Shown one piece after another: positions 37,151 to 52,363 of a stretch of 55,611 nucleotides of DNA. Every line of letters starts with the position of its first letter. Within the stretch, counting starts at the first letter, position 1. The translations under genes and the position numbers were made by a program. Source of the DNA: a virus (lineage: Duplodnaviria > Caudoviricetes); IMG/VR virus record IMGVR_UViG_3300020042_001002, positions 1-55,611 of that record; one strand, given 5' to 3'. The notes under the pieces were generated by a model that made no database searches, was not told the DNA's origin, and worked only from the letters and a program-made list of their open reading frames with translations.

Positions 37151-37181
37151 TTGACTCTCAGGGAACCTAAGGTATAACTAC
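37151..37181 (+). promoter_or_regulatory. Putative late promoter (leaderless mRNA)
   Basis: TTGACT-N16-TATAACTAC, ATG at 37184. Confidence 0.55.
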
Positions 37182-44359: not shown

Positions 44360-44547
44360 GCCTTAAGCCCCTAGTAAACAACCACGAACTCTGGACTGAC
44401 TTCCTACAAGAGCTTGACGCTCGTATCAATGTCTGCTATAAAAGACTAGAACAAGTAAATGACCCAGTAGAAATCTATCGCGCTCAGGGTGAGGTACAAG
44501 CTCTACGCAAACTTGAGAAGCTACGTGAGAAGGTAAATGCAACATGA
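44356..44547 (+). CDS. Small conserved head-module protein
   Basis: IYRAQGE motif; directly after the portal. Confidence 0.6.
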   Translation: MSLKPLVNNHELWTDFLQELDARINVCYKRLEQVNDPVEIYRAQGEVQALRKLEKLREKVNAT

Positions 44548-47500
44548 ATGTCAACGACCAAACCTTTGCAGCATTTTCTCTTGCTAATCAAGATAGAAAG
44601 AAATCTTTACTTCAGTATGTCTCTGAGGGTGCTACTAATGCAGACCTTGAAGCTGCTGGCTATACACCTGCTGAAGTAGCTGCTGCATTTCCCCCTGTAA
44701 AAGAATTAACTAGGTCAAAAGAGTTTGATCGTGATCGTCAGGCTGGTGCAAACCCAGATACGCTACAGGAAGTAAAACCCTCTTTTTTACAAAGAGTTGG
44801 TGACTCTCTTTTTACTCCGCCCAGTATTGATGGTACATACTATGATCCAAAAGGTTTACCTATAGGTGCTATGCCAGATACAGATCGTATTTGGGGTATG
44901 GATGACGAAGGAAACCCTGTTAGGGTGACTGCCACAGGTGATAGATATATCATCCCAAAGTTGACCCCAAGAGATGAGAAAAAAAGAAGTTTAGATGAAA
45001 AAGTAGATATTTTTAAAGGTAAAGTTGCCCCTATTTATGAAGCAATAAAAGAGAATCCCCTTGGGGTAGCAAAAGACGTAGGTCTAGGTGTTGCAAAAAG
45101 TGTGTGGAATACAATAGGAGCTTTTAATAATCCTAATCCCACAATCGGGGATGCTATGGATGTGGCAGGATTAGTTTCACTCCCTTCTGCACCGGGGCTA
45201 TTTACTAAATTTGATCCCAATGTACTTCGTATGTTTGCTGGGCCAGAAGCTAAGAACTTCCCACATTTGATGGAAGCTGAGGCAAGTGTTCGTCGTAAGG
45301 CAGGTGAAGACCCTCAGAAAATCTGGGAAGATACTGGCATTCAATTCTTGCCTGATGGTAGACCTATATTTCAAATTGACCCTGCTGGAGCTAAAATTTT
45401 AGATTTTAATTTTTTTAATCAAGCCATACCTAAATTATCTGCTGAAGATGTGGCAAATGGTGGCGATGGTCAATTTAGGCAGAGACTTACTGACCTAGTA
45501 GACTTTCCAGAATTTTTTGAGAACTACCCGCAGCTTAAAGATTTTAATCTTGTTTTTGACCCCAATATTGCTGCGGATGGTCAAATGGATATATCTCGTA
45601 AAACTGTTAAACTCAGTATAGATTTTGTAGAAAATGCTACAGAACAGAAATTAAAAGAGACTCTCCTACATGAGTTGCAGCATGGTATTCAAGCTGCTGA
45701 AAGAACTTCGGGTGGGGCTGCATCTTCTTATTTCTTTGGGAGACAGAAACAGTGGAATTCAACTACTCAACAATGGGAGCGTACTGGTCCATATGTAACT
45801 GGTGCACCAGACATGGAGCCTGATGTACAAAACTACCAAATGCTTCTAGACGATTACATGGATTCCCGTTCAAACTACGAAAAGAATCCCGGATCTACTC
45901 AAGCGGAATCAGATGTAAAACACGCTGAACTTGAGCGTAAGAGAGGTATACTTGTTGAAGACGCTAAAAGATTAAATACTTGGGCTTTTAGAAAGTATCA
46001 AGAGAATCCCGGTGAAATTGAAGCCCGTGCTGCAGGTTTGTGGTCGCAACTTACTCCAGAAGAAAGACTAAAGACTCCCCCACTGGAGATATATAATAAA
46101 GCAGCCACTATGCACGAGCCTTTTGTTTCTAAGCTCGGTGAAACCCCTACCTATGGCGACAACTATATGCCAACCACACGATTTCCTGCTTCCCAAGAAG
46201 AGGCACTGAGTAGACTTGACCCTAATGCTGAGATGACCCCTGCTCAATCAGTAGATCAAACTGTAGCAGCCTTGGGAGAAGTTCCAGTTAAGAAAACATC
46301 TCAAAGATTTATTGAAGGTACTCCTGAGAAAAAACCAATTACATATGTTACCTCAGAAGAAAATATCGTAAGGCAAGAAGACTTTTTAAATTCTACACTT
46401 AAAGATCAAGATTTCGGTGTTGATTCTAGTAATGAAATAGTCCAAAACTCAAATCTTGGTGACGTATCTACAAAAGATTTTTCAAAATTTATATCTGAAA
46501 TTATTTATAGTCCTAATTCTATTAAAGATAGTTCAGACTTTATGAAAAATAACAACATAGTTTTTTCAGATGATGTACTTAAATCCATTGGGTATGTAGA
46601 TAATTCAGGAAATACTACACCTGCAGAAGCTATGAGTGATATTGCAAATCATTTTTATCACACATATCAGCACTCTAATTTTAGAGATTTTTTATATTCC
46701 CATAAGATTGAAGGAATACCAGATAATTTACGTTCTAAACTTGAAAAACCATTTAATACCACTTATAGAAATCCAATCAATGAAGTTATAGATGAGATTA
46801 CTTTTCCAAAGAATGGGCTAAAAGGTTCTGAGTTTATAAAGTTCTTGGATAAAAATCCATCCGTTAAATCTGCACAGTACAATACTATTGATCTTGGCAT
46901 TGATAAAAATAAATCCTATACAAAAGAACAACTATTATCTGCTATTGATCCATATACTTGGGAAACTAAAATAGAAGTTTTACCATCCCCTCAGTATGAA
47001 AATATGCAAGTTCAAAATTTCAATGAGCATGGTTATACAAGCAATAAAAAGGTGGCTGACTACAAAGAACTTGTACTAAGGGTCAATAGAAAAAATCCAG
47101 ACTTACCTACCTTTACTTTGCCAGAAGAAATAAAAAAAGCATATGGCTCTTATCACTATAGTGATGATGTTGTAGCACATACCAGACTCTCTACAGAAAC
47201 TCAAATTGGTACTAATACTAAAGAAATTGTTGTACACGAGTTTCAAAGTGACTATCTGCAAAGGGGTGCAGCTAAGGCTTCTCCAGCGGTTGATATTACA
47301 GAGGCAAAAAGTAAACTGCTTTCTAATATATTGTCAAGTATTCCTAAGGGTACAGATACACCAGAAGTTAAATTTGCAGTAGAAAAAAGCTTTGAAGAGT
47401 TATTAGCTAACGGTGGATACTTTTCTTCTGATGTAGGTAGGAATTTAAATTCTGCCCTTAAAAATGCTGGTATAAGTATTGATGATCGCATTCCAGTAAC

Positions 47501-49631
47501 AAATGCTTTATTCGAGGCTGAGGCTAAACTAAGAGATTTTGATACAAAAGGTGTGACAAAACTTCCCCTAGCTAATGTTAAAGATTCTGCAGAAAATTTA
47601 CTTGATGGTGTACTTGGGTATGCTCAACATACAGGTGTTGATAAAGTATTTATCCCGTCCATAGAACAACTTGCTTCTACTAGATTTGTTCCGGGAACCC
47701 TTGAGTTTTTTGATGCTGTTAATCCGGGGTCTTACTTTTATAACACTTACTCACAGGGTCTTGATAAAGCTGTTGGTGAGTTATCCTCAAAAACTGGTGC
47801 AGAAGTTACAGACAGTATCCGTAATAGTATTAAAGCTACCAGATATAAAACTCTTCCAAAAGATATCGGACAACTTTTTGTTAGAGATATGCAAGTAGGT
47901 TTAGAGTATAGACAATTTTTAAATAAAAAAATCACAGAGGCTGAGTTTCTTAAGAGGACTGGGCTTTCAAAAGAAGATGGAGATAAGTTTTTCTCTAACT
48001 ACAGCAAAGACCTATTTAAAGCAAGTAAAGCTAAAAATGATAAAGAGTGGTATAAAGCCTTCAGAAAGAGTTCTTTTAATGATGCTTTATATAACTATGG
48101 GATAGTAAAAGAACTAGATAATATCGGTACACAGATTGATATTGGTGATGCCAAACAACGATTTGACTTTACTAAACCCAGATATGCTACTGGGGGTCTA
48201 GTAGGTTACGCTCAAGGTGGAACAGTAGAGGATGAACAAATGAATAGACTAATGGAAGAGGGTGGCATGGCTGATGCTGGTGTCGCTCAGGAGCCTGTGA
48301 CAGGTAATGAAGTTCCTCCGGGTGCCTTGCCTTCTGAAGTGCGTGATGATGTACCTGTACAACTCTCTGAGGGTGAGTATGTTGTACCTGCTGATGTACT
48401 GCGGTTCTTCGGTGTGCGCTTCTTTGAAGACCTGCGTAATCAAGCTAAACAGGGTATGGCAGAGATGCAATCTAATGGTCGCATTGGTGGTGCTAGTGTT
48501 GACTCTAATGGCGTCCCTGCACAGGATGATGATGAACTGACCCCAGAAGAAGAGCAGATGCTTCAGGCTGCTATGGGTGGTCAGGAAGCTCCTACTGGAA
48601 TGGCTGAGGGTGGTGTTGTCCCCTTTGACCGCAGCAAGTTTACTCTAAGTAATAACACTTCTGAAAGAGAAACTCGTAAGTATATTGATCCAAAGACTGG
48701 CATTACTCAGATGTTCCAATTCTTTATGGGTTCACCTGTAACTCCTATCCCTACTAACTTTGTACCTTGGACACAGGAACTTCAAGATGCTGCTGCCAAG
48801 CCAGTTACCCCAACAATCGAACAACCTAAAGTAGCTCGTAATGACAGGGATAGAGATAGCGTAGACATTATGAAGGACGCTAAGGATAGTGGGGGTGATT
48901 CTGTTTTAAGTTACAAAAATTGGGCAGAAGAAAACTACGATGCTATTCAGAATGACCCCTATCAGTTTGGTATTGATGCACTGACAGATAAAAAAGGTGT
49001 TAATAAGGGTAAGACTGCTGCTGGTGTTGGTTTGTTGACAGGTCTTGCACCTGTTGCTATTGCAGGTCTAGGCTTTAGTTCAGCAGCTAAAATACAGAAC
49101 ATTGCAGAGGCTAATGCTGCACTAGAGGTTATGAAGGCTAAAGGTCTTACTGGTACCGCCAACTACGCTAACTTGCAGAAACTTACTACTGCCGCAACCA
49201 ATGATCTTCCCGGATTACAACAACTCTTTGTAGAAAATCATCTTGCAGGTTCAGGTAAGAAGTACGGCACTAGTCTTGATGCTGTAAAAGCTGCAAGAGC
49301 GGGCACTACTACTCAAGCCTCTTCAATAATCCCTGTGAGCGATGTCCCTAAAGCATCTGCTGTGAGTGCGGCTACCCGTGAAAGAGTTAACTCTAGTGGC
49401 GTAGAAAAGCTTACTCCAGTGACAGATAGAGATCGTCAAGGAACTCCTGCCCTTATCCAACGACCTACTGCAGCCCCTGTTACAACCAGAATTACACCCA
49501 CTACACAGCAGGAAAACGAAAAGAAAAAAGAAACTGCTAAAGTTACCAGTACCCTTGAGAAAACAAAATCAGGCCTTAAGGTTGGTGGCTTCAAAGATGG
49601 TGGCTTGATTACACGACCGACTAAAAAATAA
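44544..49631 (+). CDS. Large polyvalent virion-associated protein (LPD23-like region, zincin HExxH, E.QSD domain, GEYVVPAD domain)
   Basis: IWEDTG..PDGRPIFQI, LLHELQHGIQ..E, GEIEAR, VVAHTR..HEFQSD, LSEGEYVVPADV. Confidence 0.7.
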   Translation: MNVNDQTFAAFSLANQDRKKSLLQYVSEGATNADLEAAGYTPAEVAAAFPPVKELTRSKEFDRDRQAGANPDTLQEVKPSFLQRVGDSLFTPPSIDGTYYDPKGLPIGAMPDTDRIWGMDDEGNPVRVTATGDRYIIPKLTPRDEKKRSLDEKVDIFKGKVAPIYEAIKENPLGVAKDVGLGVAKSVWNTIGAFNNPNPTIGDAMDVAGLVSLPSAPGLFTKFDPNVLRMFAGPEAKNFPHLMEAEASVRRKAGEDPQKIWEDTGIQFLPDGRPIFQIDPAGAKILDFNFFNQAIPKLSAEDVANGGDGQFRQRLTDLVDFPEFFENYPQLKDFNLVFDPNIAADGQMDISRKTVKLSIDFVENATEQKLKETLLHELQHGIQAAERTSGGAASSYFFGRQKQWNSTTQQWERTGPYVTGAPDMEPDVQNYQMLLDDYMDSRSNYEKNPGSTQAESDVKHAELERKRGILVEDAKRLNTWAFRKYQENPGEIEARAAGLWSQLTPEERLKTPPLEIYNKAATMHEPFVSKLGETPTYGDNYMPTTRFPASQEEALSRLDPNAEMTPAQSVDQTVAALGEVPVKKTSQRFIEGTPEKKPITYVTSEENIVRQEDFLNSTLKDQDFGVDSSNEIVQNSNLGDVSTKDFSKFISEIIYSPNSIKDSSDFMKNNNIVFSDDVLKSIGYVDNSGNTTPAEAMSDIANHFYHTYQHSNFRDFLYSHKIEGIPDNLRSKLEKPFNTTYRNPINEVIDEITFPKNGLKGSEFIKFLDKNPSVKSAQYNTIDLGIDKNKSYTKEQLLSAIDPYTWETKIEVLPSPQYENMQVQNFNEHGYTSNKKVADYKELVLRVNRKNPDLPTFTLPEEIKKAYGSYHYSDDVVAHTRLSTETQIGTNTKEIVVHEFQSDYLQRGAAKASPAVDITEAKSKLLSNILSSIPKGTDTPEVKFAVEKSFEELLANGGYFSSDVGRNLNSALKNAGISIDDRIPVTNALFEAEAKLRDFDTKGVTKLPLANVKDSAENLLDGVLGYAQHTGVDKVFIPSIEQLASTRFVPGTLEFFDAVNPGSYFYNTYSQGLDKAVGELSSKTGAEVTDSIRNSIKATRYKTLPKDIGQLFVRDMQVGLEYRQFLNKKITEAEFLKRTGLSKEDGDKFFSNYSKDLFKASKAKNDKEWYKAFRKSSFNDALYNYGIVKELDNIGTQIDIGDAKQRFDFTKPRYATGGLVGYAQGGTVEDEQMNRLMEEGGMADAGVAQEPVTGNEVPPGALPSEVRDDVPVQLSEGEYVVPADVLRFFGVRFFEDLRNQAKQGMAEMQSNGRIGGASVDSNGVPAQDDDELTPEEEQMLQAAMGGQEAPTGMAEGGVVPFDRSKFTLSNNTSERETRKYIDPKTGITQMFQFFMGSPVTPIPTNFVPWTQELQDAAAKPVTPTIEQPKVARNDRDRDSVDIMKDAKDSGGDSVLSYKNWAEENYDAIQNDPYQFGIDALTDKKGVNKGKTAAGVGLLTGLAPVAIAGLGFSSAAKIQNIAEANAALEVMKAKGLTGTANYANLQKLTTAATNDLPGLQQLFVENHLAGSGKKYGTSLDAVKAARAGTTTQASSIIPVSDVPKASAVSAATRERVNSSGVEKLTPVTDRDRQGTPALIQRPTAAPVTTRITPTTQQENEKKKETAKVTSTLEKTKSGLKVGGFKDGGLITRPTKK

Positions 49632-49634
49632 TAA

Positions 49635-49658
49635 GGCAACTCAGCTAAGGCTGACCCC
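49635..49658 (+). promoter_or_regulatory. Structured leader element before the scaffold gene
   Basis: GG-CAAC-TCAGC-TAAG-GCTGA-CC-CC hairpin just upstream of the RBS. Confidence 0.55.
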
Positions 49659-49675
49659 AACATAAAGGATAAACT

Positions 49676-50524
49676 ATGTCTAACGTAAAGCAAGTCTTTG
49701 TGGACCCTACCTACTCTAATCGTAGAGGTAAGCAACGGATTGAAGAGAGTGAGCGAGAGCTTGAGGAGTTGATGAAGGGTAACAGTCCTGAAGAGGAAGA
49801 AAAACCTGCAGTTGCTCCTGTTATTGAAGAAGAACCAACTGACCCTGAAGAGAAGTCTTTCAAGAAGCGTTATGGTGATCTCCGCCGTCATATGTCTGAG
49901 AAAGAAAAAGATTGGGAAGAGAAGTTCAAAGCCCTTGAATCAAACCCTACAACCCGACAAGTTCTACCCCCTAAGTCCGATGAAGATATTGCCGCTTGGG
50001 CTAGACAGTACCCTGACATTGCTTCTATCGTAGAGACTATTGCTACAAAGAAAGCAGATGAGAAACTTTCTAAATACAAAAACCAGTTTGAAGAGTATGA
50101 GAAAGTTACCTCTGATACTATGAGACAGAAGGCACACAATCTTATCCGCGAGTCTCACTCTGACTTTGATGAACTACGTAAGTCTGATACCTTCCATAAC
50201 TGGGTGGATGAACAACCTAAGTGGATTCAAGATTCTCTCTATGAAAACGAGGATGATGCTAAAGCAGTGGTTCGTATCCTTGATCTGTATAAAGTAGACA
50301 AGGGTATTAATCCAACTGCAAAGAAGGCAAAGACTAAAGAAGCTGCTGCTATGGTATCTCCTCGCCAGAAAGCACAAGTAGACTTTGCTGAAGATGGTGC
50401 AAAGATTTACGAATCTCAAGTTGCTAAAATGTCTATGGATATGTACGGCAAGAATGAGACAAAGATCATGGAGGCTATTCGCAAAGGTAATTTTGTGTAT
50501 GATGTCTCCGGTGGTGCAAGATAA
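49676..50524 (+). CDS. Capsid scaffolding protein
   Basis: Acidic coiled coil, FKKRYGDLRRH, C-terminal IMEAIRKG; directly before the capsid gene. Confidence 0.75.
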   Translation: MSNVKQVFVDPTYSNRRGKQRIEESERELEELMKGNSPEEEEKPAVAPVIEEEPTDPEEKSFKKRYGDLRRHMSEKEKDWEEKFKALESNPTTRQVLPPKSDEDIAAWARQYPDIASIVETIATKKADEKLSKYKNQFEEYEKVTSDTMRQKAHNLIRESHSDFDELRKSDTFHNWVDEQPKWIQDSLYENEDDAKAVVRILDLYKVDKGINPTAKKAKTKEAAAMVSPRQKAQVDFAEDGAKIYESQVAKMSMDMYGKNETKIMEAIRKGNFVYDVSGGAR

Positions 50525-50527
50525 CAC

Positions 50528-50558
50528 TTGACAACTAAAGACAATTCGATATAACTAC
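50528..50558 (+). promoter_or_regulatory. Putative capsid promoter
   Basis: TTGACA-N16-TATAACTAC. Confidence 0.6.
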
Positions 50559-50561
50559 AGG

Positions 50562-50726
50562 CAAGTAGCTACGGCCTCCACTAACCGGACACCCCTAGTT
50601 ACTTGTTTTTCCCAAAAATTAAAAGTCTAAACGATCATTAAGACAAACCTGACTAAGTACAGGCCCGTCTCCCAGTAGGTTGGCAAACCGAACATGAGAT
50701 GCACCCTAGAAATCGTGAGCCTCTTA
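50562..50726 (+). ncRNA. Candidate structured cis-regulatory RNA in the capsid leader
   Basis: Two stems, each with GG-CC / CAC-CC internal loop; the first is followed by a U tract. Confidence 0.5.
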
Positions 50727-50773
50727 TACGTGTGTTTAGCTTCTCAGAGCCAAATATCATAGGAGTATTTCTC

Positions 50774-51847
50774 ATGGCTTTTCAATCCGCTGCTGGTCAT
50801 AGCAGCCTTCCCAATGGCAACTTTTCTTCGGTAATCTATTCCAAGAAAGTCCAACTCGCTTTCCGTAAGTCTACCGTTTGTGGTGACATCACGAACTCTG
50901 ACTACTTTGGTGAAATTTCTTCTCAAGGCGATACCGTTCGTATCATCAAAGAGCCTGAAATTTCGGTGTCGGCTTATGCCCGTGGCACCCAAGTCCAAGC
51001 ACAAGACCTGCAGGACGCTGACTTCTCGTTGGTAATCGACAAGGCTAACTACTTTGCCTTCAAGATTGACGACATTGAAGAGGCTCACTCGCACGTGAAC
51101 TTCATGGACCTCGCTACCAATCGTGCTGCCTACCGTTTGGCTGACCAGCATGACCAAGAAGTTCTGGGCTACCTGTCGGGCTACAAGCAATCAGCTCTCC
51201 ATGCTAACGCTGGTGCAGTGAACGATCAAGTCAATGGTATTAGAGCCGTCTCCACTGCTGGCTCGGACGAACTGTTGTCCTCGATGAAGTTGATCAAAAG
51301 CTCGTTTGGTAACATCACCACTGCTTCGGCTGCTGACCACTCGATCCCAGTTGCTGCTCGTCTTCCGGGTGCTACTGCTCTGCCGACTACTCACGTTTCG
51401 CCTGTCATGCTGATCAACCGCATGGCTCGTCTTTTGGACCAACAGAACGTAGACAAAGCTAACCGCTGGTTGGTTATTGACTCCGTGATGATGGAAGTTC
51501 TAATGGACGAAGACTCGCGCTTCCTGAATGCTGACTATGGTGATTCGGGCGCATTGCGTAACGGTCTGGTTCTGTCGAACTGGAATGGTTTCCGTGTGTA
51601 TAGCTCGAACAACCTGCCTTCGGTTGGTACGGGTGCGGGTACTGTCGGTACTGCTAACCAGAACGCTAACTACGGTGTGATCGTTGCTGGTCATGATTCG
51701 GCTGTCGCTACTGCTGAACAGATCAACAAGACCGAAACCTACCGTGACCCGGACTCGTTTGCTGATATCATCCGTGGTATGCACCTGTATGGTCGCAAGA
51801 TTCTGCGTCCTGAGGCTCTTGTTACGGCTAAGTACAACCTTGCCTAA
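50774..51847 (+). CDS. Major capsid protein
   Basis: AGGAG RBS; GDTVRIIKEP, RDPDSFADIIRGMHLYGRKILRPEAL; biased codon use. Confidence 0.9.
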   Translation: MAFQSAAGHSSLPNGNFSSVIYSKKVQLAFRKSTVCGDITNSDYFGEISSQGDTVRIIKEPEISVSAYARGTQVQAQDLQDADFSLVIDKANYFAFKIDDIEEAHSHVNFMDLATNRAAYRLADQHDQEVLGYLSGYKQSALHANAGAVNDQVNGIRAVSTAGSDELLSSMKLIKSSFGNITTASAADHSIPVAARLPGATALPTTHVSPVMLINRMARLLDQQNVDKANRWLVIDSVMMEVLMDEDSRFLNADYGDSGALRNGLVLSNWNGFRVYSSNNLPSVGTGAGTVGTANQNANYGVIVAGHDSAVATAEQINKTETYRDPDSFADIIRGMHLYGRKILRPEALVTAKYNLA

Positions 51848-51858
51848 TAGGCTACACT

Positions 51859-51883
51859 AGGGTATCCCTTCGGGGGTACCTTT
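51859..51883 (+). terminator. Rho-independent terminator
   Basis: AGGGTATCCC-TTCG-GGGGTACCTTT. Confidence 0.8.
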
Positions 51884-51915
51884 AACTGCCATACAACCTA
51901 GGAAAGGATTTTACT

Positions 51916-52334: not shown

Positions 52335-52363
52335 AGGGTATCCCTTCATTGGGGTACCCTTTT
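52335..52363 (+). terminator. Rho-independent terminator
   Basis: AGGGTATCCC-TTCATT-GGGGTACCCT-TTT. Confidence 0.8.

Follow-up and report, generated by a model that had tools for sequence, protein, structure and literature searches.

A recurring C-loop-like RNA module in the leaders of the scaffold-like and capsid genes of HMO-2011-type phages

Introduction

Why do two separate head-gene messages of one phage carry the same small internal loop in different stems? The question is raised by IMGVR_UViG_3300020042_001002, a virus record that is complete, has 55,611 bases and carries direct terminal repeats; over its whole length it is referred to here as the window. Its nearest named relatives are the HMO-2011-type podophages, i.e. 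the Roseobacter CRP phages and Puniceispirillum phage HMO-2011. Phages of this type are among the commonest in the sea, with relatives in lakes and in soil rhizobia. The loop is found in the messenger RNA (mRNA) leader of a scaffold-like gene and in that of the major capsid gene. The original prediction for this locus described three copies and, tentatively, a fourth that encloses one of them, regarded them as an RNA structural motif reminiscent of a C-loop, and proposed that they are binding sites for a phage protein that sets head-protein stoichiometry.

The present analysis reveals that the loops are copies of one conserved RNA module, in which a strand of 3–5 nucleotides (nt) ending in AC (CAC, CNAC or UUAC) lies opposite an unpaired CC and is flanked by a G-C or A-U pair. 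The module is restricted to two leaders, those of the scaffold-like and capsid genes, and serves these most-needed head-assembly mRNAs of HMO-2011-type and related phages as a shared building block. It is a previously undescribed cis-acting RNA module, a structured mRNA leader composed of known types of three-dimensional (3D) motifs. The module probably helps to control the amount of head protein, as far as can be judged from sequence comparison.

The loop copies in the two leaders

The loop occurs once in the window's scaffold leader, within the following elements (+ strand):

49627..49673, +: conserved scaffold-leader element, defined by alignment A1 (56 relatives) and covariance model R2
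49635-49658, +: hairpin GG-CAAC-UCAGC-UAAG-GCUGA-CC-CC, read from the sequence, with CAAC as long strand and CC as short strand
After this hairpin and before the ATG at 49676, +: Shine-Dalgarno site AACAUAAAGGA

The capsid leader, which is about 215 nt long, contains three copies, one in a 5'-terminal hairpin (P1) and two in a longer interrupted hairpin (the rod):

50559..50608 (conserved core 50562-50605), +: P1, from the minimum-energy fold and covariation
50573-50594, +: loop copy 2 at the top of P1, GG-CC-UCC-ACUAACC-GGA-CAC-CC
50640..50725, +: rod, from alignment A2, RNAalifold and covariance model R1
50640-43 / 50722-25, +: P2a of the rod, AAGA / UCUU
50644-48 / 50720-21, +: loop copy 4, the outer rod loop (IL1), long strand CAAAC and short strand CC
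50649-53 / 50715-19, +: P2b of the rod, with a G.G mismatch in the window
50653-60 / 50708-15, +: junction IL2, sarcin-ricin-like, CUAAGUAC opposite AGAAAUCG
50661-63 / 50705-07, +: P3a of the rod, AGG / CCU
50664-65 / 50702-04, +: loop copy 3, the inner rod loop (IL3), CC opposite CAC, within AGG-CC-CGUCUC...GAGAUG-CAC-CCU (50661-50707)
50666-71 / 50696-50701, +: P3b of the rod
50672-95, +: rod apex

All copies, i.e. the three loops and the enclosing fourth, are present in the sequence where they had been predicted, and all follow the scheme 5'-N[YNAC]C-3' opposite 5'-G[CC]N'-3'. Read 5' to 3', the copies in P1 and the inner rod loop show the CC strand first; those in the scaffold hairpin and the outer rod loop show the long strand first. 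As a consequence of the opposite orientation of the two rod loops, each strand of the rod reads 5'-long loop-helix-junction-helix-CC-3', which gives the rod a pseudo-dyad. The rod comprises about 22 pairs, broken by internal loops, and the scaffold hairpin 7–8 pairs.

In a single sequence the motif does not rise above chance. When the window is scanned loosely on its two strands for CC opposite CAC or CNAC, at least 2 + 3 flanking pairs being required, 195 matches are obtained, and the fold of the whole 266-nt leader is only marginally better than that of shuffles (z = -1.37).

Covariation and loop conservation in close relatives

The near set consists of 80 IMG/VR loci, with capsids that are 77–94% identical to that of the window, and of CRP-9 and HMO-2011. 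The capsid alignment A2, made with MAFFT, holds 71 distinct leaders that were not selected on the rod, and the scaffold alignment A1 holds 56 distinct hairpin sequences; counts out of 71 and 56 below refer to these two alignments, and roughly 600 further IMG/VR relatives lie outside them. As controls, 500 shuffles per alignment and slid structures were used.

The scaffold hairpin is paired in 97.8% of the alignment cells, compared to 87.0% in the shuffles. Its covariation amounts to 0.312 versus 0.132, a value that is reached by 0/500 shuffles, and slid controls stay at or below 0.10. Both-sided changes are observed at all six of the six pairs of the inner helix, and the outer GG/CC never varies in the near set. 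Invariant are the letters GG, the C-A-C of the long strand and CCCC, the second base of the long strand being U, A, C or G, such that the long strand reads C-N-A-C in 56/56 sequences.

The capsid leader behaves similarly. Without a supplied structure, RNAalifold predicts from the 71 leaders P3a, P3b, both helices of P1 (outer and inner) and, of the enclosing helix, the inner part (P2b). The helices that flank the P1 loop and the CC/CAC loop, two of the three loops of the capsid leader, are recovered in this way, and compensatory changes occur in 17 of the 21 predicted pairs. For the full capsid-leader structure, 88.3% of the cells are paired (75.4% in shuffles) and the covariation is 0.345 versus 0.141, again with 0/500 shuffles reaching it and slid controls of at most 0.085. 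Both-sided changes in P1 affect 6/7 pairs of the outer and 3/3 pairs of the inner helix. P2b has its G.G mismatch in the window and the nearest relative (L003), and CUGAC/GUCAG in others.

The loop letters of the capsid leader are invariant alignment columns, and many further unpaired letters of this leader are invariant as well. In P1 the G-CC is present in 65/71 leaders, and the long strand (NYNAC or CAC) ends in AC and is followed by C in 66/71. In IL1 both the AC-ending long strand and the G-CC occur in 71/71, the base three before the end being C or U, and the tentatively proposed enclosing copy is thus real. IL3 shows GG-CC in 71/71, with the long strand CAC in 67 and UUAC in 4. G-U pairs are frequent on the + strand (e.g. 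in 15/71 leaders at one P3b pair), which fits an RNA of that strand and not a DNA palindrome.

Covariance models were built of the rod (R1; 90 positions, 22 pairs) and of the scaffold-leader element (R2). Each matches the window once, R1 with 80.8 bits (E-value 2.8e-21; next hit 12.6 bits) and R2 with 62.3 bits (E-value 1.5e-14; next hit 11.6 bits). The claim that fixed loop bases in varying stems form an RNA structural motif in both head-gene leaders is thus confirmed among homologous leaders, with covariation above all 500 shuffles in each alignment and with conserved loops. Homologous positions are kept with compensatory changes in more than 100 relatives, and the loop module is almost certainly real and under selection, judging from these alignments.

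Comparison with Rfam, which had also been suggested, produced no family match in a cmscan with Rfam 15 of positions 49000-51500 on both strands at E-values up to 10; the sole hit, SNORA9 on the - strand inside the scaffold-like gene, is noise (16.7 bits compared to a gathering score of 85). No description of the leader or of the loop module was found in print. A catalogue published in 2023 contains 8,495 candidate RNAs from IMG/VR (PMC10690425). Four 9–12-mers of the leader are absent from the searched part of its supplement, to which the two sequence files and one other file do not belong, and the catalogue may list parts of the leader. A scan of a genome collection (596 Gb) with the pattern AGGCCN{20,50}CACCCTAGAAA was too loose, returning at least 120 stretches, and 0/80 of the loci listed (L167-L246) match R1 at an E-value of 0.001 or less; this result has no bearing on prophage hosts.

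The rod often terminates at its apex in a short palindromic loop or near-palindrome, namely GGCC in many relatives, GCGC in the CRP-9 group and UGAUCA/GAUC in others; the window has GGCA. Such palindromes could let two RNAs pair loop-to-loop, or merely reflect hairpin symmetry.

Persistence of the module in distant phages

The rod is kept in the Sinorhizobium phage phiM6 (68 kb) and in a freshwater podophage. A distant set of 80 loci, with capsids 40–92% identical to the phiM6 capsid, provided 57 distinct leaders. Model R1, which derives from the near set, finds 35/82 distant-set loci at an E-value of 0.01 or less, and the matches that were checked lie about 50–140 nt before the capsid start. 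The distant leaders were also analysed with a loop-agnostic parser, in which only the two CC dinucleotides are fixed and both long strands are left free. It parses 42 of the 57 leaders into 32 architectures, of which 21 have AC at the end of each free long strand, as compared to 2 of the 178 shuffles that could be parsed (out of 570).

All four helices of the rod differ among the distant leaders while the loops persist. Examples are AGA/UCU, GAG/CUC, CGGA/UCUG and AGU/ACU for P2a, and UAG/CUA, GUUGG/CCAAC and AGCAAA/UUUGCU for P3a. In the distant scaffold leaders the outer helix, too, covaries (GG/CC, CUAG/CUAG, UUGG/CCAA and GGG/CCC). The scaffold leaders of HMO-2011-like and phiM6-like phages have a pair of loops, outer and inner, as in the capsid rod; that of the window has the outer copy only.

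In the freshwater phage that keeps the rod, the Manatee Spring podophage L084 (1029-1830), a gene for an HNH endonuclease is located within the capsid leader, between P1 and the rod, and its reading frame runs at its end into the 5' strand of the outer rod loop. P1 and rod are thus separable.

Similarity to known RNA motifs

C-loops are asymmetric internal loops, which in three dimensions are defined by two non-Watson-Crick pairs across the strands, in base triples with the flanking pairs, and by a stronger helical twist. The longer strand contains two multiply paired cytosines around one stacked base, with one insertion tolerated, and the shorter strand has 0–2 bulged bases; they occur in helices h15, H38, H50 and H96 of ribosomal RNA (rRNA), in the Escherichia coli thrS operator and in viroid loop 26 (accessible parts of PMC4551918, PMC2952876 and PMC9516175). 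The phage loops were compared to RNA 3D Motif Atlas group IL_73276.5 as used in PMC4551918, for which supplement 2 of that paper, as far as accessible, lists the natural variants GCACU*AGC, GCAAC*GGC, CCACC*GG, GCACU*AAAC, GCGAAU*AAAC and CCUCU*ACG.

In this notation the phage loops have the forms G[CAC]C*G[CC]C and A[CUAC]C*G[CC]U. Like C-loops, they are asymmetric loops inside a hairpin stem, flanked on both sides by Watson-Crick helices, for which covariation is found in the scaffold hairpin, P1, P2b and P3b and, in the distant set, in P2a, P3a and the scaffold outer helix. Two cytosines are present in the longer strand (C-N-C, with one insertion), and the pair after the last C is C-G or U-A. 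A C-N-U-C strand, as present in one lineage, is compatible with a C-loop as well, CUC being a listed core. The shorter strand always has two unpaired bases (CC), and two-nucleotide short strands are among those listed, e.g. GCACU*AAAC. The proposed resemblance to a C-loop therefore holds for the sizes (3x2 and 4x2), the C-N-C core and the G/A-closed flank, all of which are found among the published variants. The exact phage variants, G[CAC]C*G[CC]C among them, are absent from the accessible list. Other differences are the short strand, which in the phages is CC without exception, the ending AC of nearly all long strands, and the outer rod loop, which may begin with U and has a long strand of 5 nt. 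The phage loops are C-loop-like, and on the sequence evidence they have a somewhat better than even prospect of adopting the C-loop fold itself.

The junction in the middle of the rod, which the original prediction does not mention, resembles another rRNA module. The two strands of IL2, AAGUAY and AGAAAA, carry the AGUA/GAA signature of the sarcin-ricin or G-bulge motif, AGUA standing opposite GAA between two helices; AGUA and GAA are both present in 61/71 leaders. In the window, CUAAGUAC is identical to the 5' strand of two E. coli 23S variants, CUAAGUAC*GGAACUG and CUAAGUAC*AGAACUG, in the accessible part of supplement 2 of PMC4551918; the opposite strand starts with AGAA and has one extra base. 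The signature is limited to the HMO-2011-like group, whereas the phiM6-like rods have other junctions. These features suggest that IL2 is sarcin-ricin-like.

The capsid transcription unit

The capsid leader is predicted to lie at the start of a transcription unit of its own, with the following further elements (+ strand):

50528..50555, +: sigma-70-like promoter TTGACA-N16-TATAAC, directly 3' of the stop codon of the scaffold-like gene
50627-50632, +: CUAAAC, conserved and single-stranded between P1 and the rod, able to pair with GUUUAG (50734-50739)
50734..50755, +: hairpin P4, GUUUAGCUU / AGAGCCAAAU, with a conserved A.C mismatch, paired in 90% of the cells
50761..50776, +: Shine-Dalgarno site AGGAG (50761-65) and capsid ATG (50774)
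51860..51883, +: terminator-like hairpin GGGUAUCCC-UUCG-GGGGUACC followed by UUU, after the capsid stop codon, closing the unit

The pattern TTGACN{16,18}TATAAY has 2 matches in the window where 0.13 are expected. Of the 80 sequences that extend 200 nt or more upstream from the capsid start, 76 have a promoter of the form TTGACA-N15-19-TATAAC directly after the scaffold-like gene. The other match in the window, TTGACT-N16-TATAAC at 37151-37178, is located 6 nt before the first open reading frame (37184) of a rightward gene block. P1 begins 0–5 nt past the -10 hexamer in 64/71 leaders, and the transcript would consequently begin inside the stem.

RNA-library contigs from three runs, which represent relatives 88–96% identical to the window, bridge the leader and the capsid coding sequence. 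One contig of 1258 letters starts at about 50559-50561, 4–6 nt past the -10 hexamer, a weak hint that agrees with the predicted transcript start, since neither transcription nor RNA ends can be proved by contigs. In four runs, no contig covers the scaffold leader or the greater part of the scaffold-like gene, which carries no weight.

Downstream of the rod, GUUUAG has two mutually exclusive partners. Its pairing with the upstream CUAAAC would enclose the rod and is possible in 81% of the cells, without covariation; the rival pairing with the downstream CCAAAU (50750-50755), which constitutes P4, is possible in 90% with no or little covariation. The loop of P4 has inserts of variable size in relatives. 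The capsid Shine-Dalgarno site is left unpaired in the predicted structures, and its pairing with the leader as CCUCUU-AGGAGG was rejected, being lost by eye where P2a changes, e.g. to AGU/ACU in locus L126. Also rejected was the in-frame ATG at 50699 inside the rod, as the start of a 25-residue capsid extension or of a small open reading frame; it is not conserved, CRP-9 having CUG and then a stop codon. The same applies to a fifth loop copy, 'AGGCUAC' at 51848-51855 just 3' of the capsid stop codon, which is not conserved in relatives. G+C-rich hairpins with U runs follow the capsid gene in a subset of relatives only. In the window, a terminator-like hairpin nearly identical to that of the capsid gene (GGGUAUCCC-loop-GGGGUACC(C), with a U run) stands after the next gene, at 52337-52363.

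Possible functions of the module

We estimate, from sequence and predicted structure, a probability of roughly 40% that the module is the docking site of one common trans-acting factor that tunes the scaffold and capsid messages. The capsid mRNA would start at the host-type promoter and present first P1, with one loop copy, and then the rod, with two. The module would serve as common dock for a single factor, probably a dimer. The foremost candidate for this factor is the scaffold-like protein, followed by a host ribosomal component. Binding of the factor would tune the translation, and perhaps the stability, of both mRNAs together. This explanation is preferred because the loop letters are far more constrained than those of rRNA C-loops, because two separate mRNAs, with products that are required in a fixed ratio, both contain the module, because the rod is pseudo-dyadic with a sarcin-ricin-like centre, and because most relatives have a distance of 6–12 nt, and the window one of 6 nt, between the end of the scaffold hairpin and the Shine-Dalgarno site. 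A more specific form of it, in which the pseudo-dyadic rod and the scaffold-leader copies are the RNA operator of an assembly sensor, such that free dimers of the scaffold-like protein bind both and set the scaffold-to-capsid ratio, must be considered rather unlikely.

Several observations weigh against a dedicated docking site. RNA-binding Pfam domains were detected in 0/55 of the window proteins scanned, and the scaffold-like protein has no named family in searches of Pfam and PHROG. The Shine-Dalgarno sites are not sequestered by the leaders. The distance between rod and capsid ribosome-binding site is variable, owing to the P4 inserts, and in the window it exceeds 35 nt, which leaves simple steric blocking plausible for the scaffold leader only, and not for the capsid leader. 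Not every loop letter is fixed, as in one lineage the penultimate A is replaced by U (CCUC, CUUC, CUCC), both cytosines being kept, and the variant G[CAC]C*G[CC]C itself, as noted above, is absent from the accessible list. Fixed letters across phages of very different hosts would fit a structural role or a host ribosomal partner as well. Finally, a basic motif of the scaffold-like protein (F/W-K-K-R-Y-G-D-L-R-R) is present also in 2 relatives with a short gap upstream of the capsid gene (37 and 134 nt). The protein motif is thus not tied to the RNA element, and a link between the two was dropped as uninformative. Of the original interpretation, the shared RNA motif stands, but the binding of a phage protein that governs head-protein stoichiometry is a proposal only, to which the Pfam scan and the variable position of the rod lend no support.

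The leader might instead be architectural or stabilising, with loops that set helical twist and shape, a P1 that shields the capsid mRNA from 5'-end-dependent decay, and a compact fold by which, in the interest of very high expression, the ribosome-binding site is kept free or ribosomes are recruited, all without a dedicated regulator. This is nearly as probable as the docking site. It agrees with the position of P1 at the predicted transcript start in 64/71 leaders after a near-consensus promoter, with the unpaired Shine-Dalgarno site and with the lack of a regulator in the Pfam scan of the 55 window proteins. The terminator-like hairpin at the end of the capsid unit fits as well, highly expressed phage capsid units such as phage T7 gene 10 ending in such a hairpin. 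In addition, C-loops are described as architectural motifs (accessible parts of one of PMC4551918, PMC2952876 and PMC9516175). However, C-loops in rRNA tolerate many letter variants, whereas AC and CC are nearly invariant over capsids that are only 40–55% identical. Also against a purely structural role are the return of these letters in another mRNA leader at a separate place and the fact that the pseudo-dyad and the sarcin-ricin-like centre resemble a docking surface.

Much less probable is that the hairpins are processing sites, at which, as in T7-like phages, a cut by RNase III or another endoribonuclease would part the scaffold message from the capsid message and stabilise both. The sites lie between genes, the rod with its approximately 22 interrupted pairs resembles T7 RNase III sites, and one RNA-library contig starts at 50576, inside P1, although contigs cannot show RNA ends. 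RNase III needs about two helical turns of near-continuous double strand. The scaffold hairpin with its 7–8 pairs is too short for this, the rod alone could qualify, and the enzyme can consequently not explain the motif that both leaders share. Moreover, the promoter already supplies the 5' end of the capsid mRNA.

A riboswitch-like ligand sensor or conformational switch, in which GUUUAG alternates between CUAAAC and CCAAAU, is similarly improbable, and slightly more so. The two exclusive pairings are largely conserved and the leader contains many invariant unpaired letters, but neither pairing covaries. A terminator or Shine-Dalgarno-sequestering platform is missing: P1 was rejected as a conserved terminator, since only 12/71 leaders have, in the 9 nt that follow P1, a run of 4 or more U; the window has UUUUU. 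Furthermore, a capsid gene would be an unusual riboswitch target, and the short scaffold hairpin is too small for a ligand pocket.

Chance resemblance or a DNA-level element (a protein-binding palindrome or packaging site) is hardly credible despite the 195 loose matches in the window, in view of the compensatory changes at homologous positions in more than 100 relatives, the common + strand G-U pairs, which would be A.C mismatches on the other strand, and the asymmetry of the loops, by which the DNA is not a palindrome.

If the module indeed docks a common factor, it offers a mutable RNA handle on the balance between scaffold and capsid in tailed phages, a question that dates from work on phage P22. 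Should the assembly-sensor form be true, it would provide a defined RNA target for the scaffold autoregulation that is known genetically in P22, and this in very abundant marine and freshwater phages. If the module is only architectural, it is a natural, reused C-loop-type block with unusually strict sequence, useful for RNA structure prediction and design. In each case, a conserved capsid leader of about 215 nt that is made of rRNA-like 3D modules, one of which also precedes the scaffold-like gene, is absent from Rfam.

Comparison with known regulatory systems

The E. coli thrS operator reportedly has two similar RNA arms that are read by the ThrRS homodimer in competition with the ribosome. 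It is the nearest functional analogue, being a C-loop-containing mRNA leader just upstream of a ribosome-binding site, and the C-loops of thrS mRNA and viroids are described as protein-binding and translational-control sites (accessible parts of PMC9516175, which cites Torres-Larios 2002 on the operator). The regulator of thrS, in contrast, is the gene's own product and mimics transfer RNA recognition. The phage leaders have no anticodon-like loop, two different genes share the module, and there is a candidate binder only.

Phage P22 is comparable with respect to the proteins. The window capsid is distantly P22-coat-like, with a Pfam PF11651 score at threshold, and the output of the P22 scaffold is tuned at the translational level to match assembly. 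To our knowledge, no RNA operator has been defined for P22. It lacks leaders of the present kind, gene 8 starting 13 nt after gene 1 and gene 5 abutting gene 8, and there is no detectable family link between the scaffold-like protein and gp8. The P22 scaffolding protein is autoregulated post-transcriptionally (accessible parts of bioRxiv 10.1101/2022.12.13.520362).

The gene 10 unit of phage T7 has its own promoter, a structured leader and a terminator. The capsid unit of the window is similarly composed of a strong promoter of its own, a hairpin with which the message begins at its 5' end and, downstream of the gene, a terminator hairpin. Unlike that of T7, the window promoter is of the host sigma-70 type, and the Pfam scan of 55 window proteins detected no phage RNA polymerase. 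The leader of about 215 nt with conserved 3D-motif-like loops, and the recurrence of the module in the scaffold leader, are further differences.

The head-gene block

The two leaders are part of the following head-gene block:

44544-49631: virion protein, 1695 amino acids
49676-50524: scaffold-like gene, 282 amino acids, acidic/basic, between the virion protein and capsid genes
Gap of 250 nt between the scaffold-like and capsid genes
From ATG 50774, +: major capsid gene, assigned by Pfam capsid families and PHROG 267 (major head protein)

The scaffold label given to the middle gene in the original prediction is supported by position and composition; the protein belongs to PHROG 13678, which gives no function, and it is scaffold-like in these two respects only. 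The basic motif, written as (F/W/Y)-K-K-R-Y-G-D-L-R-R, is detected by strict pattern in 104/164 loci, and looser forms are visible by eye in most of the remaining loci that have a scaffold-like gene. The proteins in which it is strongly conserved include those of the window, L001, L002, L083 and L084.

Public runs that contain at least half of the sampled words of positions 49500-51900 are metagenomes, one of them labelled lake water; the named relatives are marine.

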